Positions 6,136 through 48,125 of a stretch of 64,000 bases of DNA are shown in pieces. Position numbers and translations under genes: made by a program. A model generated the notes under the pieces. That model was not told the DNA's origin and searched no databases. It saw only the letters and a program-made list of their open reading frames with translations. This stretch comes from Bacteroidota bacterium. GTDB lineage: Bacteria; Bacteroidota; Bacteroidia; 2-12-FULL-35-15. Every line of letters begins with the position of its first letter. Within the stretch, counting starts at the first letter, position 1. The stretch is from NCBI GenBank assembly GCA_947469885.1, contig CANIQT010000012.1, forward strand, positions 4,951-68,950. The letters run 5' to 3'.

Positions 6136-6393
6136 CTATTGTTTTATCACCGTTTGAGAGTGAATTACATTTGAATCAACATCCAGTAATCTTACAAAGT
6201 ACATTCCGTCTCTGTATTGTTCAATGTTTGTTTTCATCGTAGTAGTTCCACTCAACACCTGATGTCTTTCATGTATCACTATGTTGCCAAGCACATCATA
6301 CACCTCAACCACCACATCCATATCTTTTTCAGAAGTTACGTCAATTGTAAATTCAGAAGTAGCAGGATTTGGATAAATATCGGTGAAAGTAGC
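6136..6393 (-). other. T9SS type-A C-terminal sorting domain of the giant protein (last ~85 aa)
   Basis: The motif YPNPATSEFTIDV...VEVYDVLGNIV...GMYFVRL...VIKQ. It is paralogous to the C-termini of the 33127..36138 and 3744..5432 proteins. Confidence 0.7.
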
Positions 6394-9300
6394 ACTCGAT
6401 TCAACTTCATTATTCATTGCATTAGGATCTAAACATCTTGTGATGGTTTTTTGGCTTGCCGCAGTAGTAGTACAACCGTTTGAAGCAGTAACCTTCAATA
6501 ATGAAGTCGCTGTGGTGACACCAACACTAGGAGCAATATTCACAATTATAGTGCTGTTACCTTGTTGTGAGCCATTGATGAAAGATTGACCTGTAGCTAA
6601 AGTCCAAGTGTATGTGTGGTTTGCAACAGCTGTAACAGAATAAGTAGCTGTTGTCATACCGCAGGTGTTAGCAGGACCCGTTATAGTGCCAGGTGCAGTT
6701 GAAGTTATTATCAAGTTCAATGTTCTTGCAGTTGGAGAATTTCCACAAGAGTTCACAGCATATACTGAAATACTTCCTGCTGTGGTACCAGACAAGTTAA
6801 CTGTTACAGAAGTTCCTGTGTTAGAACCTGTAATTGTTCCTGCACCTGTAATTGACCATAGATAACTAGTTGCACCAGCTACAGGAGGAGCAGAATAAGT
6901 TGCTGTAGTCATACCGCATACATTAGCCGGTCCTGAAATTGACGCTGGTGGTGACGCAGGTGCTGCTCCTGTTACTGCCAATGTAGCAGCAGGTCCTGGG
7001 AATGAACATGCGTTATTTGCAGTTACTTTCACAGTTCCTGAAACAAACGAAGTGTTGTACTGAGCAACAATTGAAGTTGTTCCTTGTCCACTTACTATGG
7101 TCATACCAGCAGGCACTGTCCAAGTGTAAGCCCCATTAGCTCCGTTAGCAGCTGCACCAACAGTAGTTGTAGTAGAATAAGTTACCTGTGTTCCAATCAT
7201 TCCACACAAAGAAGCTGGTCCTTGAACTGGTGTTGGAGTAGCTGGTGATTTAGATACCCCTATTGAAGCAGTTCCACTGTTACCACAATTGTTAGATGCG
7301 GTGCAAGTCACATTTCCAGAAACAGTTCCTGAGAAGGTAACTGTAATAGAAGTAGTTCCTTGACCTATACCACTCAATGTCATTCCGGTTGAACCAGCAG
7401 ACAATGCCCAAGTATAATTGGTTGCTAGTGGTACCGCAGCAACTGAATATGTTGCGCTACTCAAACCGCAAACTACTGACAATCCTGAAATCACAGGGGT
7501 TGCTGGTATTGCGCCAACCGTTGTGTTCACAACAAGTGGTGCACTTGTACATCCACCACCGTTAGCAACTATTGTGTATTGAACCACACCATAAACGTTT
7601 CCAGAATTAGATAAGACATCCTGAATAGTTGTTCCGCAGTTGCTTGCACAATTTGTGCTACCCAACACTCCTCCAGCAGTTACCAATGAAGTCCAAGTAA
7701 ATGTACTTCCTGATACTGTTGAATTGAGAGAAAGCTGAACGTTAGCTCCATTACAGATAACTCCTGTTCCAGGACCTGTTGCTGTTACAACAGGCGTAGG
7801 GGTTACAGTTACATTTTGAGTAGCTGTAGCAGTGTTACCACTTCCATCAGTTACTGTCCATGTTACTACTGTTGTTCCCACAGGATAAGTAGATGACGGA
7901 TGGTTATTGGTTACCGTATAAGTACAGTTGTCATTAGCTACCGGAGTACCTAATACAACTGGTAAACCATTACAAACCGTTACCGCTGTTGGTGCTGTGA
8001 TAGTTGGTAATTCTGCATCATTAACAGTAATGTTGAATGAGCAAGATGCCACACCACAACCATTTGTTGCAGTTAACGAAACTGTTGTCGTTCCTCTATT
8101 AAATGCAGTACCACTGGCGTTTCCGCTTCCACTTCCTGTAGTTGCACCACTTAATACATAAGTGATGGTTGGAGTGGTTCCACTAGTTGCACTTGAATAG
8201 GTAACCACACTGCTGCAAAGACCCGTTGCAGTGTTTGCATTTATAGTAGCAGGACAGTTAGTGAACAACGGAACCGTACAGTTAGATTCAAAGGTAGCAC
8301 TGATGGTATGAGTAGTGGTTACATTTGTAAATGTATAAGTTCCCGAAGCAATTGCTCCTGAGTTAGAAACTCCATCCACCAATACATCAAGAATATGGAA
8401 TCCTGGATTGGCAGTAATAACATAGATTTGACTTGTTCCTGAACAAGTTGCTGTTGTTCCATTAGGAGTGATACTTCCATTAGCACCTGCCGAAGCAACC
8501 ATGTTAAAGTATGGCAACACTGTTACGTTTTGAGTAGCCGTTGCAGTATTTCCATTTGCATCTTCTGCTGTCCAAGTCACCACCGTGGTACCTACACCAA
8601 ATGTTGCAGGAGCATCACTGCTGTAAGTAACTGTGCCGCAGTTATCACTTCCAGATGGTGTTCCTAACACAACAACTGTTGCGGCTCCTCCACAAACTGT
8701 TATTGAAGCCGGCGCAGAAACTAAAGGCAATTCATCATCAGTAACGGTTATGTCCTGATGACAAGTTGAAGTATTTCCAGCAACATCTGTCACGGTCCAA
8801 TTTACAGTGGTAGTTCCCACCGGATAAGTTCCGCTGGCATCGTCTGTATTTGTATAATCATTGATAACAGTAGCACCTGCAACATTGTCTCCGAATACTG
8901 GGGTTGTTACACTAACAACAGCATTACAAGCTCCCACATCAGCAGTCTGACCTTGAGAACCAGAACAGGTTATGGTAGGTGATTCGTCATCTGTTACAGT
9001 GATATCCTGATGGCAAGTTGATGTATTTCCATTTGCATCCGTTACTTCCCAATTTACAGTTGTTGTTCCTACAGGATAGTTACCACTTGCATCATTTGTA
9101 TTTGTATAATCGTTAGTAATGGTTGCACCAGTGCAATTGTCACCAAAAATTGGTGCCGTAACTGTTACCGCAGCAGTATTTGTTCCTGCATCCGCTGTTT
9201 GAGTTTGTGAACCCGAACAAGTTATTGAAGGGAATTCATCATCTGTCACTTGAACATCCTGATGACAAGATACGGTGTTACCATCAAAGTCGGTTACTGT

Positions 9301-12300
9301 CCATTCTATGGTAGTTATACCTACAGGATAAATTCCGCTTGCATCATCTGTACCTGTTATATTATTAACAATATAAACTCCAGGAGAGTTATCTCCGAAA
9401 ACAGGTGTAGTTACCACAACTGCTGTTTCACACAAGCCTGCATCTGCACTCAGTGTTATAGTTCCATCACAAGCAATAGTAGGCATTTCTCCATCTGTTA
9501 CCGAAATGTCCTGATGACAGGTAGTTGTATTTCCATGTACATCGGTAACCGTCCATTCAATAGTTGTTGTTCCAACAGGATACACGTCAGTTGCATCGTT
9601 TGTACCATTATAACTATTAGCTATTGTAACGGCAGTACAGTTGTCTGAGAAAGTTGGAGTTACCACTGATACAAAGGCTGAACTCTGTCCTGGGTCATTT
9701 ACCTGAGTCTGTGCAACGGCACATACAATCATCGGCAATTGATCATCTGTAACAGTAATATCCTGATGACAGGTAGATGAATTTCCATATCCATCTAATA
9801 CCGTCCATGTCAAGGTAGTTGTTCCAACAGGATATATATCACTTGCATCATTTGTATTATTATAATCGTTAGTGATAGTTAAGCCAGTACAATTATCAGC
9901 TGTTTGAGGAGTTGAAATCGAAACAAAAGCTTCACACATATCCAATTCTGCAGTCTGAAATTGTTCAGAAGGACAAACAATTGTTGGCAACTCATCATCT
10001 GTAACTGTAATGTCCTGATGGCAGGTAGCGGAGTTTCCGTTTCCATCCTCAACCGTCCAAATAATAGTAGTAGTTCCAACTGGATAAACATCACTTGCAT
10101 CTGCTGTATTATTATAATCATTCGAAATTGTTGAACCAGTACAATTATCTGCAATACTTGGCGGAATCACAATTACAAACGAAGAACACTGATTCAAATC
10201 TGCAGTCTGAAATTGTTCAGGAGCACAAGTTATCAGAGGCAACTCATCATCTGTTATTACAATATCCTGGTGGCAGGTTGCGGAATTGCCATGATCATCA
10301 ATTGCAGTCCAAATTACAGTAGTAGTACCAACAGGATAAATACCACTTGCATCTGTACTATTATTATAGTCGTTTGTAAGTGTTGATCCAGAACAGTTAT
10401 CTGTAAACGAAGGAGGGGTTACTGTAATAAAACCGGTACACTGATGTAAATCAGCAGTGTGAGTTTGTTCAGGCGCACAGGTGATGATTGGTAATTCGTC
10501 ATCCGTAACAACAATGTCTTGATGACAAGTTGCAGAGTTTCCATGTCCATCCGTCACGGTCCATATTACGGTTGTTGTTCCAACAGGATACGTATCACTT
10601 GCATCCGGTGAATTATTGTAATCATTTGATATGGTAGATCCGGTACAATTGTCTGAGAAGGTAGGCTGAACAACCGTTACAAAAGTAGTACATTGACTTA
10701 AATCTGCCGTTTCATCCTGCTCAGGTGCACAAGTTATTAAAGGCAATTCATCGTCCGTTATTACAACATCCTGATGACAAGTTACACTGTTTCCGCTTCC
10801 GTCAGTTACTGTCCATATAATTGTAGTTGTCCCAACAGGATAAACATCACTTGCGTCTGCTGTAAAATTATAATCATTTGAAATTGATGCCCCTGGTGAG
10901 TTATCGGAGAAAGCCGGAGGAAACACCGTTACATAACTTGAACACTGTCCTAAATTCGCTGATTGTGTTTGAGAAAGCGAACAAGTAATAATTGGATCCT
11001 GAGTATCTGAAACGGTAACTACTTGCGTTCCTGTTGATGCATTACCACATGCATCGGTTGCTGTCCAAGTTACTGTTGTTGTTCCAACTGGATAAGGACC
11101 TTGAGGATCGTAAGTAATTGTTACAGCCGAACCAATATCAGTCCCGGTTGCTGTTCCAATTGGCTCTGTTGAAGTACCATTCCCTGTGTTTTCCTGAATT
11201 ACGATAGCAGGTGGAACTGTAATAACCGGAGCAATATTGTCTATAATTTTAAATTCAGCATAGGTAGAATTTGAGTAATTACCAGCTTGGTCATATACCT
11301 GGAATCCAACTAAACCACTTCGACCTGTAGTACCGCATTGATTTATCCAGTTGGCAGAGTTATAATCATTTACCCAATAATTATCAAGATGTAAAGCATC
11401 AGTACAATTGTCTGTTGCATCTGCATCTGCCCAATTGGTAATCAACCAATCATAAAACTCATTTACGTTTCCTGCACCGTCAGATTGTACTGTCATATTC
11501 TGCGCTGGCACAGTTATTACTGGAGCTTCTGTATCGTTTATTGTAATATCAAAATCACTTGTAACTGTTCCGCAGAGATTGGTAGCAGAAATGGTGACAG
11601 TGGTGATTCCCAAGCTAAAGAAAGTTCCAGAATTTTCTGAATAAGTAACTGAGGGCGAAGGAATACCTGCAATTGAAGCAGAATAATTAACTATTGCTCC
11701 ACAAACATGTAAATCATTACCAACTGTTATCGGAGAAGGAGGTGTTATTACTGGCATAGTACAATTCAATGCAAATGTCGCATTAATGGTATGGTCTGCA
11801 GATACGTTTATGAATGTATAAGTGTAACTACTTAAACCAATAGCAGCATTAACGGTCACCCCATCCACACTCAAATCATCAATGTGATAATTCGAATTTG
11901 CATTAATTGCATAAGGTGCGTCAGTTCCGTGACATACACCATTATTAGCTCCACTTGGCGAAATAGTTCCATTTGCAGCAGCCGAAGCATTAATGGTAAA
12001 GTTTCTTGGAATAGTCACCGCCACATCCACTGTACTTAATGAAGGACAAGCAGAAGGCTCAGTTGAATTTGAACCTACTGTATATATCACTACCTCGTCA
12101 GTCGTTCCCGAATTGGTTAAAAAGTCAGTAATTGCATTCCCGCATGCACCAGCGCAATCCAACGGTCCATTCACATTGGTAGAATAATTCGGATCCACTG
12201 TCCAGTTAAAGTCAGGGTTACCAGCTGCTGTGATAGAAATATTTGCATTTGTACCACTGCAAACAACGGCAGTAGGAGACACAACTGGGTCAGCTGGTGT

Positions 12301-15300
12301 AATACCTAATGTTGCATGGTGTGTTATCGGTGCTCCAGCACAACCCAATAATCCTATTGTTGAAACAGGAGTAATGATGTATGTTACTGTAGCGTCAGTA
12401 GAACCATTATTAACCAAAGGCTGATTAGTAGTATTTATTTGGTTACCACAACCTGACGTACATGCGCTCCATCCTGTTAAACTAGGAGAAGAGGAAGATG
12501 CTGTCCAAGTGTAAGTAGTACCCGGAGCAGATGCATTAAGCAATGTTACTGGTGCATCACCCGGACAATAGGTTATATCACTAACGTTAAGACCTGGTCT
12601 TGGATTTACAAGCACTGTTCTTGTCAAGGCAGCTCCCGTACATCCGTTCGAAGTTGGTGTTACAGTATATGTAATTGTTTGTTGTGTTGTCACACCATTA
12701 TTACTTGTTACTGTATTATTTAAAGTAGAACTATTTTGTGTAATCAAACTCTCCCCGGTTGTATTAGCATTATTTGCCGCAACCCATGTAAATGTTGAAG
12801 CAATATTTGCTGTTAAAGGAACACTGATTGCGGAACCACTACAAACTGTTGCCATTGGAGTAACATTGGTTACCGTTGGTTTTGGTTTTACGGTTACCGT
12901 TACTGTAAATGGAGTACCTGCACACACATCTGGGCTAGGACTTATAGGAGTCACCGTGTAAACCACATCCTGATTTGTAATCACACCTGTATTTAATGCA
13001 AGTGTATTGGTAATAGTACCAAGGGTTTGATTACTTGTACTTTCTCCGGTTACGTTTGTATTATCAGCCGCCACCCAACTCCAAGTTCCCCCTGGAATTG
13101 AAGAGTTAAGTGCAACAGATGTAGTGGCTCCAGTACATATACTAGCTGTAGTAGCAGTAGTTCCATTGGTAGCTATTGGTTTAATAGTTACCGGAACAGT
13201 TCCCGAAGCATGACAACCGCTACTTGCAGTAGCTGTTACCGTATAAGTGGTAGGCGATGTAATGTTCGATCCTGTTACACTTGGTCCTGTAGTTACACCG
13301 CCAAGGAATGTAACCGGAAGCCAGGAGTAAGTAACTGCAGGGGCTACACCACCTGTTACTGTAATAGTAAAGTCGATTGTAACACCTGAAGTGATGGCAC
13401 TAATACTCGAAACACCTGCTATAGCGTTTGCTGTGATATCCGTATTTCTTATTCTCAAACGGTGATTACCGTTAGGACAAGATGCCGGAATGGTAAGAGC
13501 TGTTACTAATGGATTAACTCCAACAGAACTAGTACATAAAAGTTCAGAAGCATCTTCAAAACTACCATTGTCGTTCATATCAATCCAAACCTTGTAAGAG
13601 TCATTAATGTTAGACTGAACCGAAACAGATGTTGCTGAGTTAGCTGCAAAAGTTCCAACAGTAGTTGTTCTGTTCAAATATCCCGGACTAACAGTAGGAG
13701 TTCCATTGGTATAAGCGAACCCTAAACCTGTAAAATTGGTTATTTCATGGCCTGTACTACCACCATTAGATGATACCGGAGTAGTATAAACTGGAGCTGC
13801 CGCTACACCTGCCGCAAGCACCGAACTGGTGTTGTTACAAATAGAAGCAGGAGTTGCAGTTACATAATTCAAGGTAATACCGGCTGCAACAGTGCTGATA
13901 GTTATTTGCGGAGAAGTAACACTACATCCAAATTCAGTAACAATTACAGAATAAGCTCCTGTAGAACTAGGCGAGAAAGTAGAAGATGTTGCTCCGCCTA
14001 TATTACTTGCTCCAAGTTTCCATTGATATGTTGGTGAACCTGTTGTAGTCGCATCCAAAGGAGCACCTACACCCGAACAGAATGTTGTGTTGTTTGGAGA
14101 TGTAATAACTGCAACTGGAGCATTCGCTGTTGTAATAGGACTTGTTGATGATGAACAGTTTGTTCCACAAGCATCCGTAATACTGCAAGCATAAGTATGT
14201 GTACCCAATCCTGAGTTTATAGTTGCTGTATTACCACCAAATGCTAATCCATCCTGAGTCCATACATAAGTATATGGTGTATTGCCTCCTGTAGGATGAG
14301 CAGTAACCGTTTGAACTCCAAGACAAGTGCTTACACCACCAATTGTCAACGCGCCACATGTTACAGGAGTAGCTCCCGCAACAGTAACCGTTTGAACCGC
14401 ACAAGCACCTGCTGATGTAGCAGTTACAGAATACGTATTTACCGGCAAGTTTGGAGGTGTTACTCCAGTTGGGTTTTGCAATGACGAACTAAAACTATTT
14501 GGTCCTGTCCAAGCATAGGTTGCCACTGGTGGAGTACCTGTTACAGAAACATTATCTACTGCAGGATTTGCAAATGGAGTAACTCCATTACTCTTGAAAG
14601 TAAATACTATCCGAACTGTTGTACCAGCAACACCACTCAATGGAATAGATTGTAAGGTATAGTTAGCAATAGCAGTAGAAGTATTAGTATATACCTGCGT
14701 AAACCCTCCCCCAGGTAATGTTGCTGTTGTATTATAAACAGGGGTATTAGAAGGTGTTGTCGTATAAACATAAAAAATGTCATTATTCGGATCAACAGTT
14801 GGCATTTTATAGTAGAAACTTAAATTCACATTGGTGTAATCAGCTGGAACAACAACATCCCTGTAAAAATGCCCAACACTGTTTGCTGTATTGTTACCAT
14901 TGTAATTATTATTTGTTTCACTGCCCTCATAAGCGGCATAAGTACCTCCCTGAACGCCAGGAGCAGTATTAACACCCCATTGTCTATTTACCGCACCCTG
15001 TGCTTCACTCCAACCACTCGCAGCCAAACCAACTGTGCCACCTTCAAAACCACCGTTTGTGGTAGGATCCAGTAATGTAGGACTCAATGTAGAAACACTT
15101 GCCAACAAATTAATAGTTCCCCCTGCACAAATAGCAGGTGGATTCGAACTAGCTGTTACACCAGAAAGGAAAGGACTCAACGTTACCGTAGCCGTTACCG
15201 GTGTTGCAGGGCAACCTCCGTTGCTTGCATTAATAGTAAATGGCACAGCTGTAGAGGTTCCGTTTGATGTAGTAAAGTTACCACTTATAGTTGTAGCAGT

Positions 15301-18300
15301 TCCACTTGCAGCCGCTGTTGTAGTTATTCCAGATGGGCTTGTTCTTGTCCAAGAGAAAGTAGCACCAGAAGGTGTACTTGTCAGAACAAATGGAGTCATA
15401 CTAGCACCAGAACAAATGGTTTGAGACAATGATGGACTCACATTGATGGTTGGAATGGCGATGAACGACAACGTATTATTAGAAGTAGAACCACAGGTAG
15501 TATTCAAAGAAACAGCAACATTGTTTCCTGATACACTTGCATTTGGAACTACTGTAATAATTGAATTACTGATAATGGTAAGTCCTGTAGTTGCCAATCC
15601 TCCAATGGTTACACTTGTGGTTGTACCTAAGTTGGTACCGTTAATTTGAACAGGAGCACCCGGACAACCCGCATTGAAGCTGGAAATACTTGGTGGTGTA
15701 CTGTTCACATTCACTGCCACCGTACCCGTATTCGTACATCCGTTAGAAGATGTAGTTGTTGTTACCGTATAAGTAGTAGTAGATGAAATACCAGTTACTG
15801 TAGGATTTTGTAAAGTGGATGTTCCACCCAAGAAGGTAGTCGGACTCCAACTGTATCCTAACGTGGCTGCACCTGTAACGGATAACGCAATTGACGAGTT
15901 ACCAGTAGCACAAAGTGTAGCAGGTGTAGCTGTTATCGAATTGATAGTTACACCCGGTAACGGAGTTATAAGCTTGGTTGCTGTTGCAGTACATGAATTA
16001 GCATCTGTAACTGTAGCTGTATAGGTAGTTGCTGAAGAAGGCGTTGCCGTTACGGCTTGTCCAAATGTCGGAGTTAAGCCGGAAGTTGGCAACCAAGAAT
16101 AATTAAGTGTACCTGTTCCTCCGCTTCCTGTAACGTTAAACGAAGCAGAACTTCCTGGAGAACAGAACTGACCGTTTGAAGGTGCTGTTATCAAAGAAAT
16201 GGATGGACTAGGGTTCACATTTACAGTAACCGAAACCCTTGTTGGGTTAGGACAGGTTGCTGTATTTGCTTCTGCCCAATATGTGGTAGTTGTGGTTGGA
16301 GACACAGAGAAATTAGCCCCTGTAGCCGAAGAACCCACCAATGTTCCACCAGTTTGCTGAGTCCACCATTTAATAGTAGAGCCGGTAGAAGAAGTAGCAT
16401 TCAGATTAGCTGAAGTACCAGAACAGATAGTGGTAGGTAAAGCAGTAACACTTGTTGGAGTTAAAGCGCCCGGCAACACTGTTTGATTTACATTGGTTGC
16501 CGTAAGTGGGCTACATCCGTTTAATGATGGAGTAACTTTGTATCTTACCGTTCCGTTTGCTGCTGTAGGATTATTTAATGTCTGAGCAATAGAGGTACCA
16601 CAACTTGACGAACAATTACTATAACCTACCACACTTCCCGCAGAAGTAAGTAATTGTGTTGTCCAAGTAAAGGAAGCACCGGAAGGAGTACTGCTTAAGT
16701 TAATCGCAGTAGTATTTCCACCGCAAAAAGCAGTAGGAGCTGACGGAGAAATGGTTACACTTGGCACCGTATTCACGTTTACTGCTATTGTAGCGGATGG
16801 ACCTGAGCATCCTGCACCGAAATAAGGAGTAACTACATAATTTACAACACCAGTACCTGTTAAGGTTTGAGCTATTGAAGTAACGTTAGCTAGACTTGAA
16901 TTACTGAAACCTGTTGTGGTACCCGAAGCAAGCGATGCTGTCCATTGATAAGTGGCACCTGCAGGAGTACTTGTTAAAGCAATATTACTTACCTGCCCAC
17001 TGCAAGCCTGTTGAGGAGAAGTAGTAGCCACATTTGGTATTACCGGTGAAGTAACAGTAATTGTATAAGGAGAACCAACACAGTTGTTCAAGGTAGGAGT
17101 AACAATGTATTGAATTGTTCCCGCACCACCCAACAATTGTTGAATTGCCGAACCACAAGAACCTGCACACGCACTGTACCCAGTTGAAGTACCGGTAACC
17201 GTACCAATAGTCCACGTAAACGTAGAGTTAGCAGGTGCAGTAGTTAATAATATATTTGAAGTTGCGTTGTTACAAGCACCCACAGCACTTGGAGTAGTCA
17301 TCACAGGAGTTGGTTTTAATGTAGCACTACCATTCATGGTAACGGTACAACTTCCAGATGTAGTTTTAACAGTATAAACTCCAGGAGCACTTTGAACACC
17401 AAAAGAAATTGGAGAACCAGTTCCTGGTAAAGAAGCTCCTGTAGCCACACCATCTAAATATAAATCATAGGTTAAACCGGATTGAGAGCCATTTAAACCT
17501 AATGAGAAATTGCCAGCGGCTGAACAATCAGAACCAGAAGTAGTGATAGAGAAAGCTGTAGGCGAAGGTGATACTACCACAAAGAACGAACAAGTTGAAG
17601 TATTACCTGAAGCATCTGAAGCTATAAATGTATTGGTAGTTGTTCCAACCGGGAAAGAAGACCCGGAAGGTAAACCTGTAGTTTGAACAATGGTTGGGAA
17701 AGTAAGATTCCATGTAATTACCACCTGGCCATTACCTGAAGGATTAAATCCTGCTACATTATTCTGATTTGTACCTGAATTATAGGAACCTCCTCCTCCA
17801 CCATTGGTAGGATTATTCCACGAGGCACCACCACCAGAATATCCACCACCACCACCACCAGCAGTGTTTCCACCGCCTCCGCCACCACCAAATCCACCAT
17901 TACCGGTTGCAGTACAAACAATACCTCCTGTAGCACCATTGACAAAACCGTACCCATAAGTATTAGGGCAGCAACTGGCGTTTGCTTGTCCATTAGACAA
18001 TAAACCTCCTCCATTACCACCGCAAGCACCTCCACCTCCGCTGAAAGTGGTCGCTCCATTACCATTTATACCACCCAAACCATAATTAGCAGGGGTACCT
18101 CCCAAGCCGCTGTATCCATTGACACCAGACGTAGTAGTAACTGCATCCGCACCAACAGGTGTATAAGCATTGGTACTTACTGCAATTCCGCCACCACCTC
18201 CGGCAACAATTAAAGGGGTATTAGTACTTGTGGTAACAAATGAACCACCACCACCACCACCGCCTGAACTGGTAGCCCCATCAGCACCAACTCCTCCAAC

Positions 18301-29370: not shown

Positions 29371-29430
29371 TTTGTTTTGTTTTAGGATAGTAATTTAATT
29401 TGTAATTTTTTTGTTATATGTTTTGTTATT

Positions 29431-29533: not shown

Positions 29534-29545
29534 GTTATAAATTAT

Positions 29546-29812: not shown

Positions 29813-29821
29813 TGTTGTTTT

Positions 29822-31045: not shown

Positions 31046-31070
31046 TCCTGCTCCGAATTTCGGAACAGGA
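31046..31070 (-). terminator. Rho-independent terminator of the 318-aa orphan gene (bidirectional hairpin)
   Basis: The stem TCCTGCTCCG / CGGAACAGGA has one G-U wobble on the minus-strand RNA. An A11 run lies 5' and a T6 run lies 3'. It is 28 bp downstream of the stop at 31098. Confidence 0.65.
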
Positions 31071-31097
31071 TTTTTTGTTTTTTACGCTTGATTTAAC

Positions 31098-32054
31098 CTA
31101 CAAAAAATCGATGGTAAATTCACCTTTATTAATAGTGTCGGGATTGAACACCATTAAAAAATGTTGCGTTGTTACATCTCCCAAATCGCTTGCCAACACA
31201 GTGATGTGACCACCTGCCGGAACAATAATAAACATTGCACCAATGGCTCCATCTCTTACATCCGAAAGATAAATACGCAATTCTGTTACTCCATCGTTTT
31301 CAATCTCCAACTGATCAGTTGCTTCAATGGTGCGCTCTACAACCGTATGCACTGCTTCTTTTTTTACAGCATGTTGAAACACCATTTGTGTAATGTTTCG
31401 AATGGTTAACAAATCGAAAAACGTTCCAATAAACACTTTGTTGCTTACATAATGTGCCATCAACGAACCTAAATCAACATACTGTGCATCGCACATTTCA
31501 ACTCTTGCCGCTTCCAATTCGTTGCTTTTAACTTTTGTAGTTTCGATACTTGTTTTTTGAGTATCCACCGCAAGCGTAATGGCAATGTAAAAATTGTCAA
31601 CATCGAGTTTCACAGCAGCCAAAGCGACATCAGCTCCAATGGCAATACTAAGCGAATTAATTGCTTCCACCTTTTCGTCCTGTGTACCATGCTGAAACGG
31701 CCCATGTCCATTAGGAAACATTTGCTGATATCTCACAGTTCCTTTTGCATAAACACTTGCAATGGCAACATCCCATGCGTTTATTTTTTCAAATCCAAGC
31801 TGAGCAAACATTTCATATAATGCTGCTGTCAAACCTTTCTGAATCCCAAGTTGTGCTTTCCATGCACCATACTTTGCAAGATAAGCCAAATGAAATGGCT
31901 TATACGCATTATACAATGCAAGCACAACTGCATCGGCAATATTTGCCTGAAGCGCGTTGTAGTGTATCCTTGATACACGCAATGCCAATCTGAAAGAGCT
32001 ACCTGTAGCTATTTCGATGACATTCATTAAAAAACTCCATAATCTGGTAGTCAT
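31098..32054 (-). CDS. Hypothetical protein, 318 aa, no recognisable family; acidic, A/V/T-rich, no signal peptide, possibly a structural/shell-type protein
   Basis: A clean ORF with an ATG start and a terminator hairpin. Its codon usage is less AT-skewed than its neighbours. Unlike every other gene in the 6-48 kb block, it has no secretion signal. Confidence 0.55.
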   Translation of the reverse strand: MTTRLWSFLMNVIEIATGSSFRLALRVSRIHYNALQANIADAVVLALYNAYKPFHLAYLAKYGAWKAQLGIQKGLTAALYEMFAQLGFEKINAWDVAIASVYAKGTVRYQQMFPNGHGPFQHGTQDEKVEAINSLSIAIGADVALAAVKLDVDNFYIAITLAVDTQKTSIETTKVKSNELEAARVEMCDAQYVDLGSLMAHYVSNKVFIGTFFDLLTIRNITQMVFQHAVKKEAVHTVVERTIEATDQLEIENDGVTELRIYLSDVRDGAIGAMFIIVPAGGHITVLASDLGDVTTQHFLMVFNPDTINKGEFTIDFL

Positions 32055-36100: not shown

Positions 36101-36138
36101 AGGATTGTGTCCGGTGATTTGTGTTGTTGTTTTTTCAT
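33127..36138 (-). CDS. T9SS type-A C-terminal-domain surface protein with an HYR domain and Ig/PKD-like repeats; its C-terminal ~570 aa are paralogous to the C-terminus of the giant protein
   Basis: There is a signal peptide (...LLVAAMIVGFTFSLRLSAQ). The HYR-like segment reads PVITYSQNPGTSFPVGTTNVIVTATNINGSTNCNFDVTVQDTQFPTITAP...NDNCSVSISNTGALVSYPVGTTVITWIATD. Repeated xISGxxxVCGxxxxTYSxxxVxxATSYxWxV units follow. The sorting domain reads ...YPNPASTVFTIDV...MYFVRLLDADSNIIHSGTVIKQ. Confidence 0.85.
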   Translation of the reverse strand: MKKQQHKSPDTILRGLSRAALLVAAMIVGFTFSLRLSAQNINVDNSRINVGSGAYINTDGSIHIQNSGAIDNSGAVQIKGDWTNDANGLVNASPGTVEFNGTAVQALGGTTTTTFNNLVVNNSNGITLSGNIVVNGTLTFTSGKINTGSFYVILGSAATVSGAGTGKYVNGNMRRFIPATASLSTTFCIGDASNYTPVTLDFAGTPSGSGSIDAATVTGTPAVASGISQTQYVNRQWNLTNNGVSGFTSYSPTFNFVAGDLVGSPVTSTMVVRKLDVSTWSATTNGAQNATNTQCTGVTAMGTPSTFAIGNISAPSVSCPANILASNSTGLCANSSVSFAATSSSVPAPVITYSQNPGTSFPVGTTNVIVTATNINGSTNCNFDVTVQDTQFPTITAPADVNVCFGSPVVLGTPTANDNCSVSISNTGALVSYPVGTTVITWIATDPAGHQTTANQNVVVSASPVGSASNVIICDGSPANIALSSNIGGTSFTWNSSVTTGTVTGATNCASGCGTTITNTLSNNGNPVHGVVTYTVTPTYATCSGSTFTVTATVGALPATPVISGLQVVCFVGATTYTIPTVAEATSYTWAVPSGMTITSGQNSTSITVNVAAGTILGQVTVYASNDCGDGGTATLDVSKVPFTPTITSGPATLCGLVGTLSAATYTCSTSQGATGYTWTVPTGTTIASGQGTTSIVINYNTSFVTGNVTVKATNSCSNSPLTTLVVTGNVPAAPVAISGVPSNVCGLSSINVSVAAVAGASSYNWSVTGAGNSVVGSGTTATVTLGGTTGVLTCKAVSACGEGLPRTANLVVTSPVPASISGPANLCGLTSATYTTPNLGAVIASYNWAIVVTGWTITSGQGTSSITITGPLSNINSAAGSIKVSTTNICGSTSAQKTLSITRCADPIAMNNGVESSATFSNIYPNPASTVFTIDVTTEKAQVVTVEVYDILGNLVISEKHNVVSGTSTMNTNIEQSNDGMYFVRLLDADSNIIHSGTVIKQ

Positions 36139-36207
36139 TTTTGATTATTTTATAAATTTATAAAATTATGTTTCCTGCCGTTGGTTTGACAGGAAACACA
36201 ATTAATA

Positions 36208-39990
<3,783 letters not shown>

Positions 39991-40724: not shown

Positions 40725-43700
40725 TTAACGCAATAACATAACACTTCCCTGCTCTTTCACCGTTTCTCCATTACAAAAAGTAACTTCGAGCATATAAGCA
40801 AACTCATCATTGTTCATTGGTAACCCTAGAAAGGTTCCGTCCCAACCCTGCAATATATTTGCTGTTTCGAATACTTTTTCGCCAACACGATCATATATTT
40901 TCAGATTAATAAAGTCTATTCCTCTACCATGAACAAGTAATAAATCATTATTATTATCTCCATTAGGTGAAAAACCGGTAGGCATAAAATAAGTGAAGAT
41001 TGGATTCACAGTTACTACTGTGGTATCAGAGGCAGGGCATCCATTCACATCTTGATAGGTAACATAGTATTGCTGAGTGGCAGAAGGCGAAACTGTTGCT
41101 ATCTGGCAGGTATTGCATGAAATTTGTGCATTAGATGGACCCCACAAATAAGAAAGTCCAGAAGGTTGAGCGGTTAACTCTGTAAATTCACACGAATTGA
41201 TAGAAGTGTTACCAGTAATGGCAACTGGAATAGGAGTTACAATATGAATATAATTAAGTCGGATAAGTGTATCTGCGCCCCCCGAATTGGTAACAATTAA
41301 TACGACCGTATAATCACCAGGAGCGGTGTAACAAACGTTTATTGGTCCGCTGGTATTGGCTGATGCAGGTACTCCACCTGGAAATTGCCAACTCCAAGTA
41401 GTAGGAGGACCAGAACTTAAATCAATAAAATTAACACATCCACTATTACAGATAAGTGTGTCGTCAGCCATAAAATTAGCAGAAGGTGGTGTACAACTGT
41501 TTGCTGTAACCGTTGCAACAGCAGTGGCAGAACATCCATTTGATGTTCCTGTGACCGTATAGGTGGTTGTTCCTAAAGTTCCAGGTGTAGCAGTTGCAGT
41601 GTTTACACCTGAGGCAGTAGCACCTGCACTCCAACCATAAGTGGTGGCCCCTCCAGCGGTTAATGTTGCCGAGGTACCTAAACAAATGGATGGAGAATTA
41701 ACCGTAACAATAGGGATAGGATTTGCAGTTATTGTTACCTGGGAAGTGGTTGGTGAACAAGGTAAACTGGTTATGGTCCATTGAAAAACATTGGCACCAG
41801 CTCCAAGACCAGTTACTCCGGATGTAGGAGAAGTTGGGGTTGTTATTGTTCCTGTACCACTTATTAATGTCCAAAGTCCTGTTCCAACAGTTGCAGTATT
41901 TCCAGCAAGAGTTGCTGTAGTTCCACAAATAGATTGATTAGCCCCTGCAATTGCAGTAGTTGGGGCAGGATTAACCGTAATGGTTACTTGAGCAGAAGTG
42001 GAAGGGCAAGGGGCATTAGAGATGGTCCATTGAAAAACATTGGCTCCTGCACCCAAACCAGTAACAGTAGAGGTAGGAGATGCAGGTGTAGTAATAGTTC
42101 CAGCACCACTTATCAATGTCCATAATCCAGTGCCTATAGTAGCCGTGTTCCCAGCTAATGTAGCAGTAGAAGTACAAATAGATTGATTTGCACCGGCAGT
42201 AGCAACTGTTGGGGTTGTAGCAGAAGTGATGGTAACCTGAGATGTAGAAGCAGGACAAGGAAGGTTATCTATTTCCCATTGAAAAACATTGGCACCTGCT
42301 CCTAAACCAGTAATGGTGGTGGTTGGAGATGTAGGTGTTGTAATTGTTCCCGAGCCGCTGATTAAGGTCCAAAGTCCAGTTCCAACAATAGGTATATTTC
42401 CAGCCATGGTTGCAGATGTCCCGCAAATGGTTTGATTAGGTCCTGCAACAGCCGTAGTTGGTCCGCCTGTGTTCGTAATTGTAACCTGTGATGACGAAGC
42501 AGGACAAGGAGAATTGGAAATGGTCCATTGAAAAACATTCGCTCCTGCTCCTAAACCAGTAACTGTTGATATTTCTGATGAAGGAGTAGTAATTGTTCCA
42601 GCACCACTAATTAATGTCCATAATCCAGTACCCAGTGTCGCTGCATTTGCTGCAAATGTTGCTGAAGTTGAACAAGCTGTCTGATTTGGTCCCGCTACCG
42701 AAACTGTTGGTGCACTTACTGATGTGATAGTTACCTGAGAAGTGCTGGCAGGGCAAGGAAGATTATCTATTTCCCATTGAAATACATTTGCTCCTGCACC
42801 TAAACCAGTAATAGTTGTTGTTTCAGATGTTGGAGTGGTGATGATTCCTGTTCCACTAACCAATGTCCAAAGTCCAGTTCCTACAATAGGTGCATTTCCA
42901 GCCATGGTTGCTGTGTTTCCGCATACAGTTTGATCGGCTCCAGCAACTGCTGTTGTTGGTCCGCCTGTGTTAGTAATGGTAACCTGCGATGATGATGCAG
43001 GGCATGGAGCATTGGTAATGGTCCATTGAAAAACATTGGCTCCTGCACCTAAACCTGTAACTGTTGATACTTCTGATGAAGGAGTAGTTATTGTTCCTGC
43101 TCCACTAATTAATGTCCAAAGTCCAGTGCCCACTGTTGCTGCATTTGCTGCAAATGTTGCTGAAGTTGAACATAAAGTTTGATTTGGTCCTGCAACGGAC
43201 ACAGTGGGCACTCCTACTGAAGTTATGGTTACCTGCGAAGTAGAAGCAGGACAAGGAAGATTATCTATTTCCCATTGAAATACATTTGCTCCTAATCCTA
43301 ATCCTGTTATTCCAGATGTTGGTGAAGTTGGAGTGGTGATGGTTCCTGTTCCGCTTATTAATGTCCAAAGTCCAGTTCCTACAATTGGTGCATTTCCAGC
43401 CATGGTTGCTGTTGCTCCGCAAACTGTTTGATCGACTCCTGCAACTGCTGTTGTTGGTCCTCCTGTATTTGTTATTGTTACTTGTGAGGATGAAGCTGGA
43501 CAAGGAGCATTGGAGATTGTCCATTGAAAAACATTGGCACCAACTCCTAATGCAGTAACTGTTGATACTTCTGATGTAGGAGTAGTAATAATGCCTGCTC
43601 CACTAATTAATGTCCAAAGTCCTGTACCCACTGTTGCTGCATTTGCTGCAAATGTTGCTGATGTGGAACACAAAGTTTGATTTGGTCCTGCAACGGACAC

Positions 43701-46700
43701 AGTAGGTGCCCCTACTGATGTTATGGTTACCTGAGATGTGCTGGCAGGACAAGGAAGATTATCTATTTCCCATTGAAACACATTGGCTCCTGCTCCAAGA
43801 CCTGTTATTCCTGAAGTTGGTGATGTTGGTGATGTAAGTGTTCCTGTTCCGCTTATAAGTGTCCACAAACCAGTACCAATGACAGGTGTGTTTCCAGCCA
43901 TGGTTGCCGTTGTTCCACAAACTGTTTGATTAGGTCCTGCCACCGCAGTAGTTGGTCCTCCAGTATTAGTAATAGTAACCTGTGATGATGATGCTGGACA
44001 AGGGGCATTGGAAATGGTCCATTGAAAAACATTGGCACCAACTCCTAAAGCAGTAACTGTGGATGATTCTGAACTAGGTGTAGTAATTGTTCCAACACCA
44101 CTAATTAAAGTCCATAATCCTGTTCCGGTTACGGCTGTATTTCCTGCAAGTGTTGCAGTTGTTGAACAAAGTGTTTGGTTGGGCCCAGCAACAGCAACCG
44201 TTGGTGCAACTACAGTGGTAATAGTTACTTGAGATGCACTTGGAGCACATGGCAAATTATTAATTTCCCATTGAAACACATTTGCACCTGCTCCTAAACC
44301 TGTAATTGCAGTTGTTGGAGATGTTGGAGTGGTAATGGTTCCTGCTCCACTTATTAACGTCCATAAACCAGCACCAATAACAGGTGCATTTCCAGCCATG
44401 GTTGCTGTTGTTCCGCAAACAGTTTGATTGGTACCTGCAAGTGATGTGGTTGGTCCGCCTGTATTTGTTATTGTTACCTGAGATGATGATGCAGGACAAG
44501 GAGCATTGGATATGGTCCATTGAAAAACATTGGCTCCTAATCCTAACCCCGTCACTGTTGTTGTTGGAGAAGCAGGAGTAGTTATTGTTCCGGCTCCGCT
44601 TATAAGAGTCCATAAGCCTGTTCCTACAACGGGAGAATTACCTACCATAGTTGCTGTTGCCGAACAAAGACTTTGATTGGGACCGGCAACGGATACTGTT
44701 GGCGCTGTTACAGAAGTAATAGTTACCTGCGATGTACTTGCAGGACAAGGAAGATTATCAATTTGCCATTGAAATACATTTGCTCCTAAACCTAATCCTG
44801 TTATTCCTGACGTTGGAGAGGTTGGTGTAGTGATTGTTCCCGTTCCACTTATCAGTGTCCAAAGTCCGGTTCCAACTACTGGTGCATTTCCAGCCATAGT
44901 TGCAGTTGTTCCACAAACTGATTGATTAGTTCCAGCTACTGAAACTGTTGGTGCGGCTGTTACATTAATAGTTACTTGAGAAGTTGATGCAGGGCATGGA
45001 GCATTCGAAATAGTCCATTGAAAAATATTGGCTCCAACCCCTAATCCAGTTATTGTGGTTGTTGGAGATGTTGGAGTTGTTATCGTTCCTGCACCGATAA
45101 ATAAGGTCCATTGTCCTGTGCCGACAACAGGTGCGTTACCAGCCATTGTTGCCGTTGTGCCACATACCGATTGATTGGCTCCTGCATTGGCAATGGTAGG
45201 ACTAGCAACTCTTGTAATGGTAACTTGTGATGAACTGGGAGCGCACGGAAGACTCGCAATTGTCCATTGAAATACATTTGCACCTATTCCTAACCCTGTA
45301 ATGGTTGTTGTTGGAGATGAGGCCGTAGTAATTGTTCCTGCACCGCTAATCAGTGTCCATGTTCCTGTTCCTACCACAGGTGCATTGCCTGCCATGGTTG
45401 CATTAGCGCCACAAACCGTTTGATTAGGTCCGGCAATTGAGGCTGTTGGTCCTGGAGTAATGGTGATGGTAACCTGAGAAGTAGATGCCGGACAAGGTGC
45501 ATTCGTTATTGACCATTGAAACACATTGGCTCCGGCTCCTAATCCTGTTATTGTTGTGGTTGGAGAAGTAGGAGTTGTTATAGTACCTGCACCGCTGATT
45601 AACGTCCACAAGCCTGTTCCAACAACCGGTGCATTGGCTGCCATTGTTGCTGTATTAACACAAACAGATTGATTTGGACCTGCTGCTGCCACTGTTGGAG
45701 CTGCAACAGAAGTAATAGTAACTTGTGTTGAACTTGCCGCACAAGGCAAATTGCTGATGGTCCATTGAAATACATTTGCCCCAACTCCTAGTCCGGTAAT
45801 TGTTGTGGTTGGTGAATTTGATGCTGTGATAGTGCCCGTTCCGCTCACTAAGGTCCACAATCCTGCACCTACCAATGGAGCATTTCCAGCCATTGTAGCA
45901 GTTGTTCCGCAAACTGTTTGATTGGGTCCAGCTACCGAAGTGGTTGGTCCACCAGTATTTGTTATCGTTACTTGAGAAGACGAAGGAGCACAAGGCGGGC
46001 TTGTAATTGTCCACTGAAACACATTGGCTCCTGCTCCTAACCCAGTAACGGTAGTATTTGGTAATAAAGGATTTGTAATGGTTGCTGTTCCACTTACTAA
46101 TGTCCATGTTCCCGTTCCAGTAACAGGAATATTACCTCCAAGGGTAGCCGTTGTGGAACAAACAGATTGATTTGCGCCTGCAACAGAGGCAGTGACGCCA
46201 GGACTTACGGTAACAATAACAGGTTTACGAAAACTTCCGGGACAAATCCCAACATAATAAGTAGTAGTAGCAAATAAAGCGGGTGTTGTGTAGGTTGTTC
46301 CTGTTCCTAAAACAGCGCCACCTGTTGGAGCAGCATACCATGTTACGGTTCCAGGTATCGCGCCAACAATAGTAGCGGTAAGTGTTGCTGTGGCACCTGC
46401 ACAAATTGTTACATTAGCAGTAGTAAGTGTATCAATAGTAATAACTGTTTGAGTTGGAAGCCCAACACCACCTTTAGTGGCACCATTAGGAGGAAACTCA
46501 GTTAACGAATTAGAATTGGTAGTCCCGTTTGTCCCTGCATTTGCTGTTCTGGCAATAGCTCCATTTGAAATTCCGATATATCCTCCTCCTCCTCCTCCTC
46601 CTGGTCCTTCGGCTTCACTCACTGCTCCAACTACCTGACTTCCTCCATTTCCACCATTAGTTGAAATTGAAATTCCTGAAATTGTACCAACAGAATTAAT

Positions 46701-47987
46701 GATTACTGTACCACCAGCTCCTCCTCCTCCTGCTCCATCCACTCCTGAATTGCCTGCTGCCACCCCGTCTGATTTTACGGTGCCAGTACCAGATACAGTC
46801 CCATAACTTAAAATATAAATCAATCCCCCTCCTTTTCCTCCGGCAGTACCTGAACCATTATCGTGATCACCAGCACCTCCACCACCACCCATAAAAATTC
46901 TACCTGTAGAATAGTCCAATGGACGACCGCCCCATCCACCTAAATTGCATCGTGCATATCCACCCCAACCATTAGCCACGCCAACAGTGCCAGGACCCAG
47001 AGTGGTCGCATTTGCATTCGCTGAAGAAAAAGAATACCCTCCTCTTCCTCCGCCTGACGAAACATTGGCCGAAAAACCAGCCGATTCAAGGTTCCAGGCA
47101 TTTGTCCATCCTGCAACAGCATTATCAGGATTACCGTTACCATTCCAACCAGCAATATTTCCGGCATTTCCACCACCACCACCACCACAGTTCCACACGT
47201 TTCCTCCACCGCCCGCATTTGCACCTGCACCTCTGCAATATTTTCCACCGAAAGGTGTATAATCAGTATCATAACCAGCCACTCCTTCTCCTTTATTAGT
47301 GCCTACATCCAGACTAATACAAGAAACTAAAACTGTTTGTGTGTGTGCACCATTCGCCATTAACGCCCCACCCCGAAAGCCTGTTGCATCTGCAGTAATA
47401 ATAGCAGGAGCATTAATTACAATTGTACTTAATGCTTCTATAGCCACTACTCCTCCTGTGGTTCCGTTCCAAACTTGTGTAGTAATGGTTCCAGGAGAGG
47501 TAACAGTAAGATTATTATATCTTGGAACACGCACTATCTGCACCTTTCCGGTTGAAGTATAACTTTTTGTTAATCCGCAATCAATTGTTATTGTTGTTGC
47601 ATTTGGCATAGTAGCCACTTGGCAAAATTCGTAATTTCCACAGTTGTTGTAATTGGTAATACCACCCCATGTAACATCATTAGGATTGCTGATGGTTGGT
47701 GAAAACGTATCGGGCTGACCAAGAATAGTAGCACCTTGCATTTGAATAATCATGATTAAATCTCCGGGAGCCAGTGCAGCGGCAAATCGTGCATTGGCAT
47801 TTAGTCCTGATGCAGCTACTGTGATAGATGTAGCCCCGGCTGCGGCATTAGCAGTGAGGGTAGTAAATTCATTTACTATTTTATTGGCTGTATTAACCGT
47901 TTGGCTTCCATCTTTTCCTCGCTGCGCGAAAGAAAATAAAGAGGCAAAAAGAAAAATTACAACGAGGTATTGTTTACTAAATTTCAT
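40725..47987 (-). CDS. Large (~2,420 aa) surface protein with an N-terminal Gly-rich domain, ~20 tandem Ig-like repeats, a PKD domain and a type-B T9SS sorting domain (CHU_C / gliding-motility-associated C-terminal domain)
   Basis: The preferred start is MKFSKQYLVVIFLFASLFSFAQ (ATG at 47987), which gives a canonical signal peptide. The ORF extends 25 codons further, to 48062. The repeat unit is GxGxWTLISGxGTITTPTSPTTTITGLGxGANVFQWTISNxPCPASxSQVTIT. The PKD segment reads ...TWSWQFPGGVPASANTSGPINVCYTAPGDYTVVLIVTNSGGAD. The C-terminus reads FMPTGFSPNGDNNNDLLLVHGRGIDFINLKIYDRVGEKVFE... Confidence 0.85.
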   Translation of the reverse strand: MKFSKQYLVVIFLFASLFSFAQRGKDGSQTVNTANKIVNEFTTLTANAAAGATSITVAASGLNANARFAAALAPGDLIMIIQMQGATILGQPDTFSPTISNPNDVTWGGITNYNNCGNYEFCQVATMPNATTITIDCGLTKSYTSTGKVQIVRVPRYNNLTVTSPGTITTQVWNGTTGGVVAIEALSTIVINAPAIITADATGFRGGALMANGAHTQTVLVSCISLDVGTNKGEGVAGYDTDYTPFGGKYCRGAGANAGGGGNVWNCGGGGGGNAGNIAGWNGNGNPDNAVAGWTNAWNLESAGFSANVSSGGGRGGYSFSSANANATTLGPGTVGVANGWGGYARCNLGGWGGRPLDYSTGRIFMGGGGGAGDHDNGSGTAGGKGGGLIYILSYGTVSGTGTVKSDGVAAGNSGVDGAGGGGAGGTVIINSVGTISGISISTNGGNGGSQVVGAVSEAEGPGGGGGGGYIGISNGAIARTANAGTNGTTNSNSLTEFPPNGATKGGVGLPTQTVITIDTLTTANVTICAGATATLTATIVGAIPGTVTWYAAPTGGAVLGTGTTYTTPALFATTTYYVGICPGSFRKPVIVTVSPGVTASVAGANQSVCSTTATLGGNIPVTGTGTWTLVSGTATITNPLLPNTTVTGLGAGANVFQWTITSPPCAPSSSQVTITNTGGPTTSVAGPNQTVCGTTATMAGNAPLVGAGLWTLVSGTGTITASNSPTTTITGLGVGANVFQWTISNLPCAASSTQVTITSVAAPTVAAAGPNQSVCVNTATMAANAPVVGTGLWTLISGAGTITTPTSPTTTITGLGAGANVFQWSITNAPCPASTSQVTITITPGPTASIAGPNQTVCGANATMAGNAPVVGTGTWTLISGAGTITTASSPTTTITGLGIGANVFQWTIASLPCAPSSSQVTITRVASPTIANAGANQSVCGTTATMAGNAPVVGTGQWTLFIGAGTITTPTSPTTTITGLGVGANIFQWTISNAPCPASTSQVTINVTAAPTVSVAGTNQSVCGTTATMAGNAPVVGTGLWTLISGTGTITTPTSPTSGITGLGLGANVFQWQIDNLPCPASTSQVTITSVTAPTVSVAGPNQSLCSATATMVGNSPVVGTGLWTLISGAGTITTPASPTTTVTGLGLGANVFQWTISNAPCPASSSQVTITNTGGPTTSLAGTNQTVCGTTATMAGNAPVIGAGLWTLISGAGTITTPTSPTTAITGLGAGANVFQWEINNLPCAPSASQVTITTVVAPTVAVAGPNQTLCSTTATLAGNTAVTGTGLWTLISGVGTITTPSSESSTVTALGVGANVFQWTISNAPCPASSSQVTITNTGGPTTAVAGPNQTVCGTTATMAGNTPVIGTGLWTLISGTGTLTSPTSPTSGITGLGAGANVFQWEIDNLPCPASTSQVTITSVGAPTVSVAGPNQTLCSTSATFAANAATVGTGLWTLISGAGIITTPTSEVSTVTALGVGANVFQWTISNAPCPASSSQVTITNTGGPTTAVAGVDQTVCGATATMAGNAPIVGTGLWTLISGTGTITTPTSPTSGITGLGLGANVFQWEIDNLPCPASTSQVTITSVGVPTVSVAGPNQTLCSTSATFAANAATVGTGLWTLISGAGTITTPSSEVSTVTGLGAGANVFQWTITNAPCPASSSQVTITNTGGPTTAVAGADQTVCGNTATMAGNAPIVGTGLWTLVSGTGIITTPTSETTTITGLGAGANVFQWEIDNLPCPASTSQVTITSVSAPTVSVAGPNQTACSTSATFAANAATLGTGLWTLISGAGTITTPSSEISTVTGLGAGANVFQWTISNSPCPASSSQVTITNTGGPTTAVAGPNQTICGTSATMAGNIPIVGTGLWTLISGSGTITTPTSPTTTITGLGAGANVFQWEIDNLPCPASTSQVTITSATTPTVATAGANQSICTSTATLAGNTATIGTGLWTLISGAGTITTPASPTSTVTGLGAGANVFQWTISNAPCPSTSAQVTITVNPAPTTAIAGANQSICGTTATLAGNTATVGTGLWTLISGTGTITTPTSPTSGVTGLGAGANVFQWTITSLPCSPTTSQVTITANPIPIVTVNSPSICLGTSATLTAGGATTYGWSAGATASGVNTATATPGTLGTTTYTVTGTSNGCSATAVATVTANSCTPPSANFMADDTLICNSGCVNFIDLSSGPPTTWSWQFPGGVPASANTSGPINVCYTAPGDYTVVLIVTNSGGADTLIRLNYIHIVTPIPVAITGNTSINSCEFTELTAQPSGLSYLWGPSNAQISCNTCQIATVSPSATQQYYVTYQDVNGCPASDTTVVTVNPIFTYFMPTGFSPNGDNNNDLLLVHGRGIDFINLKIYDRVGEKVFETANILQGWDGTFLGLPMNNDEFAYMLEVTFCNGETVKEQGSVMLLR
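41480..46250 (-). repeat. ~20 tandem ~245-bp (82-aa) Ig-like repeats with a higher-order two-repeat superunit (approx.)
   Basis: The DNA landmark CCATTGAAAAACATTGGC recurs at ~245-bp spacing from 42026 to 45995. Repeats alternate between the subtypes TISNAPCPASSSQVTITNTGGPTT and EIDNLPCPASTSQVTITSVxAPTV. Confidence 0.8.
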
Positions 47988-48125
47988 TGTTTCATAAAGT
48001 GCTGAGCTTAAAAAGTGTACCAAATTAGAACATTTTTTTGGTTCACAAAAATAATAAAACATTTAATAGATTAATAACCCTTATCTTAGGATAGAAAAAC
48101 GTAAAAAGGTATCTACGACATAAAT

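Follow-up and report, generated by a model that had tools for sequence, protein, structure and literature searches.

Collagen-like proteins such as BclA of Bacillus anthracis, Scl1 and Scl2 of Streptococcus and Lcl of Legionella carry a long, threonine-rich region of Gly-X-Y (GXY) triplets between globular terminal domains. BclA combines threonine-rich GXT repeats with a C-terminal jelly-roll. Type A cargo of type IX secretion systems (T9SS; TIGR04183/PF18962), which includes RemA and other large surface proteins of Flavobacterium and Cytophaga, consists of a signal peptide, a long modular Ig/PKD/HYR stalk and a C-terminal domain (CTD) for sorting. Type B cargo ends in a CTD of the CHU_C/TIGR04131 kind. 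In F. johnsoniae a porP/sprF-like shuttle gene lies directly downstream of type B cargo in 9 of 12 cases, an arrangement that is typical and not obligatory, and an orphan class, whose members go to the gliding machinery, relies on a shuttle with its gene elsewhere (PMC12618676). Here we compare with these systems a 64-kb stretch of a Bacteroidota genome (contig CANIQT010000012.1, positions 4,951 to 68,950), called the window throughout, in which four very large genes for modular surface proteins lie on the minus strand.

The four open reading frames (ORFs) are uninterrupted. They encode G7744, a giant mosaic surface protein of 7,744 amino acids (aa) with a type A CTD (6136..29370); H1003, a T9SS type A cargo protein of 1,003 aa (33127..36138; CTD at aa 924-1003); C1260, a collagen-like fibre protein of 1,260 aa without a T9SS CTD (36208..39990); and B2445, a type B cargo protein of 2,445 aa with a CHU_C CTD (40725..48062). 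A fifth cargo gene of the variable block adjoins the G7744 gene, with which it is convergent; it encodes a 562-aa protein, predicted to be secreted, with a type A CTD (3744..5432, plus strand; Por_Secre_tail at aa 481-555, 33.3 bits against a cut-off of 27). We consider it probable, at roughly 75%, that these genes fill a variable chromosomal slot with five Sec-exported surface proteins of separate histories, expressed from several transcription units. The locus is of an ordinary kind for the phylum, made up of several independent genes and not of one unit, and it adds new members to known kinds of protein. A first-pass annotation made from the sequence had described modular surface proteins of adhesin type that are secreted, three as T9SS cargo, and this description is supported: the gene sizes it gave are borne out, and Pfam and NCBIfam confirm two type A sorting domains, one of type B and none on the collagen-like protein.

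Gene content next to Fem419 in related genomes

Synteny was compared across 80 related loci, with the relatives' contigs read 10 kb out. The order S9 peptidase, DUF885 and a 419-aa gene is conserved in relatives and becomes variable after the last of these, which we label Fem419 from a weak, sub-threshold FemAB-like match. About 20 relatives have a B2445 orthologue directly after Fem419; these proteins are 1,572-2,386 aa long, their heads are 51-79% identical, and the CTD is of type B wherever the gene is fully readable. The orthologue is followed by a second type B protein of ~985 aa in L011, L018 and L031, and by opposite-strand genes that match no other window gene in L033 and L040. Elsewhere (L022, L024-L027, L038 and L045) yfiR is found within 0.7-2.5 kb after Fem419. 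NlpC is there too in L038, a relative that lacks the whole block between NlpC and Fem419, the 562-aa gene included. In the window, yfiR/NlpC and Fem419 are ~47 kb apart. Because this gap is short in some relatives and the B2445 orthologue is kept in about 20, we regard the block as a variable slot with B2445 as its conserved resident, the apparent flanks being yfiR/NlpC on one side and Fem419, DUF885 and the S9 peptidase on the other. The comparison of presence and absence suggested in the first-pass annotation has therefore revealed a region that varies between conserved flanks. The best match of the flanking DUF885 protein, at 83% identity, comes from an uncultured Bacteroidetes metagenome-assembled genome (MAG), and the source organism appears from its sequence to be an undescribed low-GC member of the Bacteroidota.

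The first-pass annotation had gone further and read four consecutive genes as one adhesin or surface-fibre island, that is, as a co-regulated and co-inherited set acquired and kept as a block. The genes do share a strand, all their products are modular and predicted to be secreted, and the slot that contains them is empty in some relatives. However, they are not consecutive, as three small unrelated genes (for an 88-aa ORF, a Uma2-family nuclease and a 318-aa protein, none of them a surface protein) and ~1 kb of non-coding DNA separate G7744 from H1003. Nor do they behave as one unit, since B2445 is lineage-conserved at this site in about 20 relatives, where it occurs alone and, in L033 and L040, directly before the opposite-strand genes mentioned above, whereas the H1003 orthologue and its fibre gene sit at a different, unrelated locus in L081. 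None of the relatives examined matches the window in both content and order of these four genes. What stands of the earlier reading is that surface-protein genes are gathered in a variable region; a single coherent island or operon is improbable.

The transcript signals of the block also speak against one island. A strong terminator hairpin of 17 bp followed by U residues lies after H1003 (-36 kcal/mol, z -7.6), another strong one lies just downstream of G7744 in the folded stretch 6010-6135 (-37.4 kcal/mol for the stretch, z -6.3), and the 318-aa gene has its own at 31040-31076. Moreover, a -7 box of Bacteroidota type, TATTTTTG, is located upstream of Met26 of B2445. From these terminators and this box we infer several transcription units and not one operon. 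Since the box lies 66 nt upstream of Met26 (47987), this codon is probably the real start of B2445 and would give a protein of 2,420 aa, the approximate size in the first-pass annotation. In the 69-nt spacer between C1260 and H1003, an A/U-rich tract comes after a 13-bp hairpin (folding of the spacer gives -21.8 kcal/mol, z -7.4), and this may be a leaky terminator. A scan of the window for sigma-70 promoters stayed at chance level.

Base composition bears on the same question. Across the block the GC content is 0.41-0.51, higher than in the flanks (0.30-0.37), whereas the GC content at third codon positions (GC3) of the big genes is native or lower (0.11-0.25, against 0.22-0.37). The high GC is therefore explained by glycine, alanine, threonine and proline codons and not by foreign origin, and the native GC3 is a further point against a block acquired as a whole. 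We also considered import from a GC-richer donor and found nothing that points to it, GC3 being equal to or below that of the flanks. We found no tRNA gene or Rfam element that would mark a site of integration. GC-rich adhesin blocks of this kind should not be read as horizontal transfer, since composition explains their GC content.

Giant cargo proteins and the modules they share

G7744 combines a putative signal peptide with Ig_7, many PKD_5 domains, five Gly_rich_2 modules, Laminin_G_3, two GEVED domains, an HYR array, four PKD_6 domains and, at the extreme C-terminus, the type A CTD (PF18962, 48.0 bits against a cut-off of 27; TIGR04183, 34.6 against 23). H1003 follows a similar plan on a smaller scale, with a putative signal peptide, a 283-aa head of beta-helix and beta-sandwich (aa 38-320) that is adhesin-like, HYR, PKD_5, four PKD_6 domains and a CTD that scores 53.4 bits with PF18962 and 42.4 with TIGR04183. 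Both thus share with known type A cargo, as does the 562-aa protein, a CTD above the cut-offs, together with a putative signal peptide and the long modular stalk of Ig, PKD and HYR domains. Compared with type A cargo such as RemA, G7744 is extreme in its size and in its five Gly_rich_2 modules, the head of H1003 has no match in the Pfam copy that we scanned, and secretion is predicted.

The C-terminal stalk and CTD of G7744 (aa 7039-7744; 6139..8256, minus strand) are paralogous to aa 319-1003 of H1003. The two proteins are 51% identical over 716 aa (E = 9e-149, composition-corrected BLASTP), and the shared region spans HYR, PKD_5, the four PKD_6 domains and the CTD. Apart from short single-domain matches between these same two proteins, the corrected search detected no other homologous sequence among the four; uncorrected BLAST also joined all four proteins, and we rejected these matches as low-complexity artefacts. 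The module shuffling within the locus that the first-pass annotation had proposed is therefore seen for the stalk of G7744 and H1003, and the other members show none. In other Bacteroidota (L084, 1-12107; L083, 1354-14200; L169, 9001-16502) we also observed a giant protein with PKD_6 domains and a type A CTD (>5,294 aa) whose gene stands directly before that of a shorter H1003-like paralogue, as well as runs of 2-4 consecutive Por_Secre_tail genes. Tandem duplication of stalk and CTD appears to be common in the phylum.

The five Gly_rich_2 modules of G7744 (PF21722; 17710..27408, minus strand) were mapped by regular expression and alignment to aa 655-902, 1050-1289, 1771-2012, 2199-2440 and 3632-3887. 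They are ~245 aa each and 47-51% identical to each other in the alignment, and they have the pattern "FxYTGxxxxFTVP...GAxGG...ILVGxxG...GGGGG...GNGQVVITW" in common. The fourth passes the PF21722 cut-off marginally (25.5 bits against 24.3); the first, scanned alone, gave no match, probably because of the HMMER composition filter. As a group they are of the PF21722 type in their pattern; this pattern also recalls the glycine-rich domain of ALK/LTK, but the match to ALK_LTK_GRD (PF12810) is not significant (E = 0.33), and a sequence search of solved structures with the Gly_rich_2 profile found no match. Sequence homologous to Ig_7 directly precedes four of the five, the second being the exception. 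We also rejected a sharing of such modules between B2445 and G7744: the likeness of the B2445 head is compositional, with an hhalign probability of 1.2%, and H1003 has no Gly-rich module, so that the glycine-rich modules said to be shared across the locus are not homologous. What B2445 and G7744 have in common is domain families (Ig_7, PKD-like) and not recently exchanged sequence.

Two further repeats belong to the G7744 gene and its surroundings. The tandem HYR array (8521..11253, minus strand) consists of ~11 copies of an 84-aa, 252-nt unit with 60-73% DNA identity. The spacer of 175 bp just upstream of the start codon contains a 52-bp direct repeat in two copies of 94% identity (29429-29533). 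In addition, spurious ORFs overlap the large genes of the window, one on the opposite strand (23260..23892, plus) and one in another frame (45655..46107, minus).

B2445 is built from a Gly-rich, AgmC_N-like head, Ig_7, 18 tandem PKD-like repeats of 83 aa (41728-46260), PKD_4 and the type B CTD (CHU_C, PF13585, 42 bits against a cut-off of 27; TIGR04131, 38.8 against 35; aa 2360-2443 of 2445, DNA 40728-40985). The 18 repeat units of 249 nt alternate in an A/B pattern and share at most 81% DNA identity. Their number is 9 in L011 and 6 in L031, and in the orthologues of L012, L015, L033 and L040 the middle region is replaced. The head reaches 158.4 bits with the NCBIfam model gliding_AgmC_N (NF047640) at a cut-off of 275, aligning aa 48-345 with model positions 29-302 of 412; it thus resembles the N-terminal domain of myxobacterial AgmC below the cut-off and is a relative of AgmC_N rather than a member. 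Our literature search on AgmC returned nothing usable. In both CTD models and as a large repeat protein, B2445 agrees with known type B cargo. The 735 bp downstream of it contain no minus-strand ORF of at least 40 aa, and no PorP/SprF match was obtained among the window genes scanned; since porP/sprF-like genes are absent downstream, we assign B2445 to the orphan class of type B substrates. Unlike gliding adhesins of the SprB type, none of the four window proteins has detectable SprB repeats (PF13573).

ORFs of this size in an uncultured organism, whose best flank match is 83% identical to a MAG protein, could in principle be assembly artefacts, produced by collapse of repeats or by chimeric metagenome joins, and the relatives' contigs do often break inside B2445 orthologues (L001, L017). 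However, all four reading frames are intact. There are no near-identical repeats, and since the internal repeats have diverged, in B2445 as in the HYR array, collapse is unlikely. Furthermore, the synteny of B2445 recurs in many assemblies, and the protein collection contains a protein 100% identical to H1003 (ENA source, longest contig 3.5 kb), although its contig may or may not be independent of the window assembly; an exact-sequence look-up of H1003 gave no match in spite of this 100%-identical cluster representative. We therefore consider an artefact extremely unlikely.

The collagen-like fibre and the gene downstream of it

C1260 consists of a putative signal peptide, an N-terminal domain of the PTL_trimer type (aa 37-110), a GXY shaft and a beta-sandwich tip of ~175 aa. 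Its only match is Collagen (PF01391, 422 bits over 11 stretches), and it has neither a T9SS CTD nor an LPXTG motif. The shaft comprises 319 GXY triplets in 8 runs (aa 108-1083), with threonine at 35% of the Y positions, and would form a triple helix ~280 nm long (976 residues x 0.286 nm). The collagen region (36742-39669) is broken by four 4-residue "S[TV]VP" interruptions, and after each of the first three a single residue is inserted 7-9 triplets further on; such breaks would give the fibre evenly spaced kinks. C1260 thus shares the long threonine-rich GXY region between globular terminal domains with BclA, Scl1/Scl2 and Lcl, and differs from them in lacking LPXTG, in the Bacteroidota PTL_trimer type of its N-terminus, in its rare tip and in its Gram-negative source. 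We do not place it among the LPXTG-anchored Scl1/Scl2 adhesins (NF038329/NF038330), as this motif is missing; the NCBIfam scores for SclB (406 bits) and Lcl come from the GXY repeats alone.

Both ends of the fibre lead beyond the collagens. Aa 31-112 are 37-61% identical to the matching stretch of more than 20 Bacteroidota proteins, nearly all with a precomputed Pfam annotation as PF26696 "PTL_trimer"; the model was not in the Pfam copy that we scanned, and the assignment is a tentative one from identity to these annotated proteins. The full-length search with C1260 was swamped by GXY repeats and was used only to recognise this domain. Fibre genes in L081, L086 and L168 encode N-termini that match this stretch at 47-68% identity. 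A sequence search of solved structures with the PTL_trimer profile found no match, and the literature on PTL_trimer/PF26696 yielded nothing usable. A k-mer search with the tip found no match, and an exhaustive HMMER search of 1.84 billion representative proteins returned only 10 relatives of it. Seven of these were read: six combine the tip with other shaft types, five of the six having a PTL_trimer-like N-terminus and, at their start, a segment that resembles a signal peptide. The remaining one is a repeat protein without relation to them. The AlphaFold2 model of the tip, of moderate quality, is a beta-sandwich of 7 strands with a predicted local distance difference test (pLDDT) score of 60 overall and 74-84 in the last ~105 aa. 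It matches jelly-roll types weakly (TNF/TL1A, CBM6/35/36, phage knobs; template modelling (TM) score ~0.4), which does not fix the fold family.

The weak likeness to phage fibre knobs raises the question whether the collagen-like gene and the genes around it are what is left of a prophage or of a phage-tail-like particle, and hence encode tail fibres and not cell-surface adhesins. PTL_trimer relatives fused to Peptidase_S74 (PF13884), and others with shafts of short tandem repeats and different C-terminal tips, are in keeping with this idea. However, there are no phage structural, replication or lysis genes in the window, and matches to PHROGs are negligible. Moreover, every full-length family member that we read has a signal-peptide-like N-terminus, which argues for cellular export, and fibre genes occur in chromosomal tandem arrays. 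We hold a phage origin to be very unlikely. The arrays, on one strand, contain 3-8 paralogues, with 8 in L154 (374-16183) and others in L089, L113, L138 and L144.

The gene downstream of the fibre may matter for its export. An orthologue of H1003 (P0122, 68% identical) is found at a different locus in L081, near murA/grpE/dnaJ. Directly upstream of it lies a collagen-like gene that was missed by the gene caller; the first 109 aa of its product are 68% identical to C1260, and beyond a scaffold gap the gene probably runs on into a C-terminal part that is rich in repeats and not collagen-like. Public annotation of this region (3219-9928) overlooks a collagen-like gene of >1,493 aa and shows in its place such ORFs as one on the reverse strand of that gene. 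A stretch of N has probably broken a single fibre gene into two ORFs, and metagenome annotations may mis-call genes of the collagen-like kind systematically. In all four loci with an H1003-type head at the N-terminus of a type A cargo protein (the window, P0122 in L081, P0132 in L086 and P0130 in L168), the same strand carries a PTL_trimer fibre gene 0.07-2 kb upstream. None was seen in the three cases in which the head module stands further inside the protein (P0125, P0131, P0152). The pairing of C1260 with H1003 is thus a real but lineage-limited gene neighbourhood.

In a sample of 80 metagenome loci with PTL_trimer genes, just 4 of the 84 fibres themselves end in a CTD. CTD-less PTL_trimer fibres might reach, or stay on, the cell surface by means of an H1003-family type A partner encoded directly downstream, in a two-partner piggy-back or anchor system. 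We put this forward because the fibre gene accompanies the N-terminal head in four of four cases and the internal head in none of three, and as a proposal it is doubtful.

Smaller features, export and meaning of the locus

Between G7744 and H1003, all on the minus strand, lie the 88-aa ORF with its hydrophobic C-terminal stretch (29546..29812), the Uma2-family nuclease of 191 aa (29822..30397) and the gene for the 318-aa protein without a family match (31098..32054). The nuclease and the 88-aa protein form a tight pair inside the adhesin block (29546-30397), and the nuclease matches the PADLOC candidate-system models PDC-S03 (E = 2e-9). Neither PHROGs nor PADLOC returned anything for the 318-aa gene. 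In the intergenic region upstream of this gene (32300-32570) the palindrome AGACARYTGTCT occurs in ~6-7 copies in 42-bp phase. Its four matches, three exact and one with one mismatch, are all that the 64-kb window contains, with 0.77 expected by chance, and the arrangement resembles a row of operators or a degenerate tandem repeat with a 42-bp unit.

Each of the surface proteins would be exported by Sec. From what is known of the pathway, the T9SS would then take the CTD-bearing ones across the outer membrane. Type A cargo would use the PorV shuttle and be released or attached to the surface after removal of the CTD, and B2445, as type B cargo, would use a PorP/SprF-type shuttle encoded elsewhere. 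On the surface the proteins would act as long modular adhesins, and the locus could diversify as internal repeats expand, domains are duplicated and tips are exchanged.

Several points weigh against the reading of the block as a variable slot of exported surface proteins. All four N-termini have a basic n-region, a hydrophobic core and an end in ...SAQ, ...YSQ or ...FAQ and look like Sec signal peptides, a likeness judged by eye. The 64-kb window contains no T9SS machinery gene (porV, sprA or porU-like), so that T9SS dependence is argued from CTD homology, and no CTD would account for the passage of C1260 through the outer membrane. The kinds of domain present (HYR, PKD, Ig, beta-helix, collagen) are our grounds for a role in adhesion. 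The closest relative is 83% identical in one flanking protein, and as contigs were read 10 kb out, the giant gene could sit elsewhere in those genomes. Finally, CTD-bearing neighbours of PTL_trimer genes are weakly enriched across the 80 loci, with 9 of 30 upstream (p = 0.006), 4 of 27 downstream (p = 0.5) and 15 of 152 elsewhere.

In environmental Bacteroidota, clustered genes for giant T9SS adhesins are common, and the locus itself changes little in this respect. It offers a clean example of how such loci evolve, with a conserved anchor gene, strain-specific additions, changes in repeat number, stalk duplication and tip swapping. Moreover, it raises the question how abundant PTL_trimer and collagen fibres that bear a putative signal peptide and lack a CTD leave the cell, with the H1003-type neighbour as a candidate partner. 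Pairing of the C1260-H1003 type is the one lead worth following; should the piggy-back proposal hold, Bacteroidota would have a two-partner system dedicated to long filaments of the collagen or tail-fibre-like kind.

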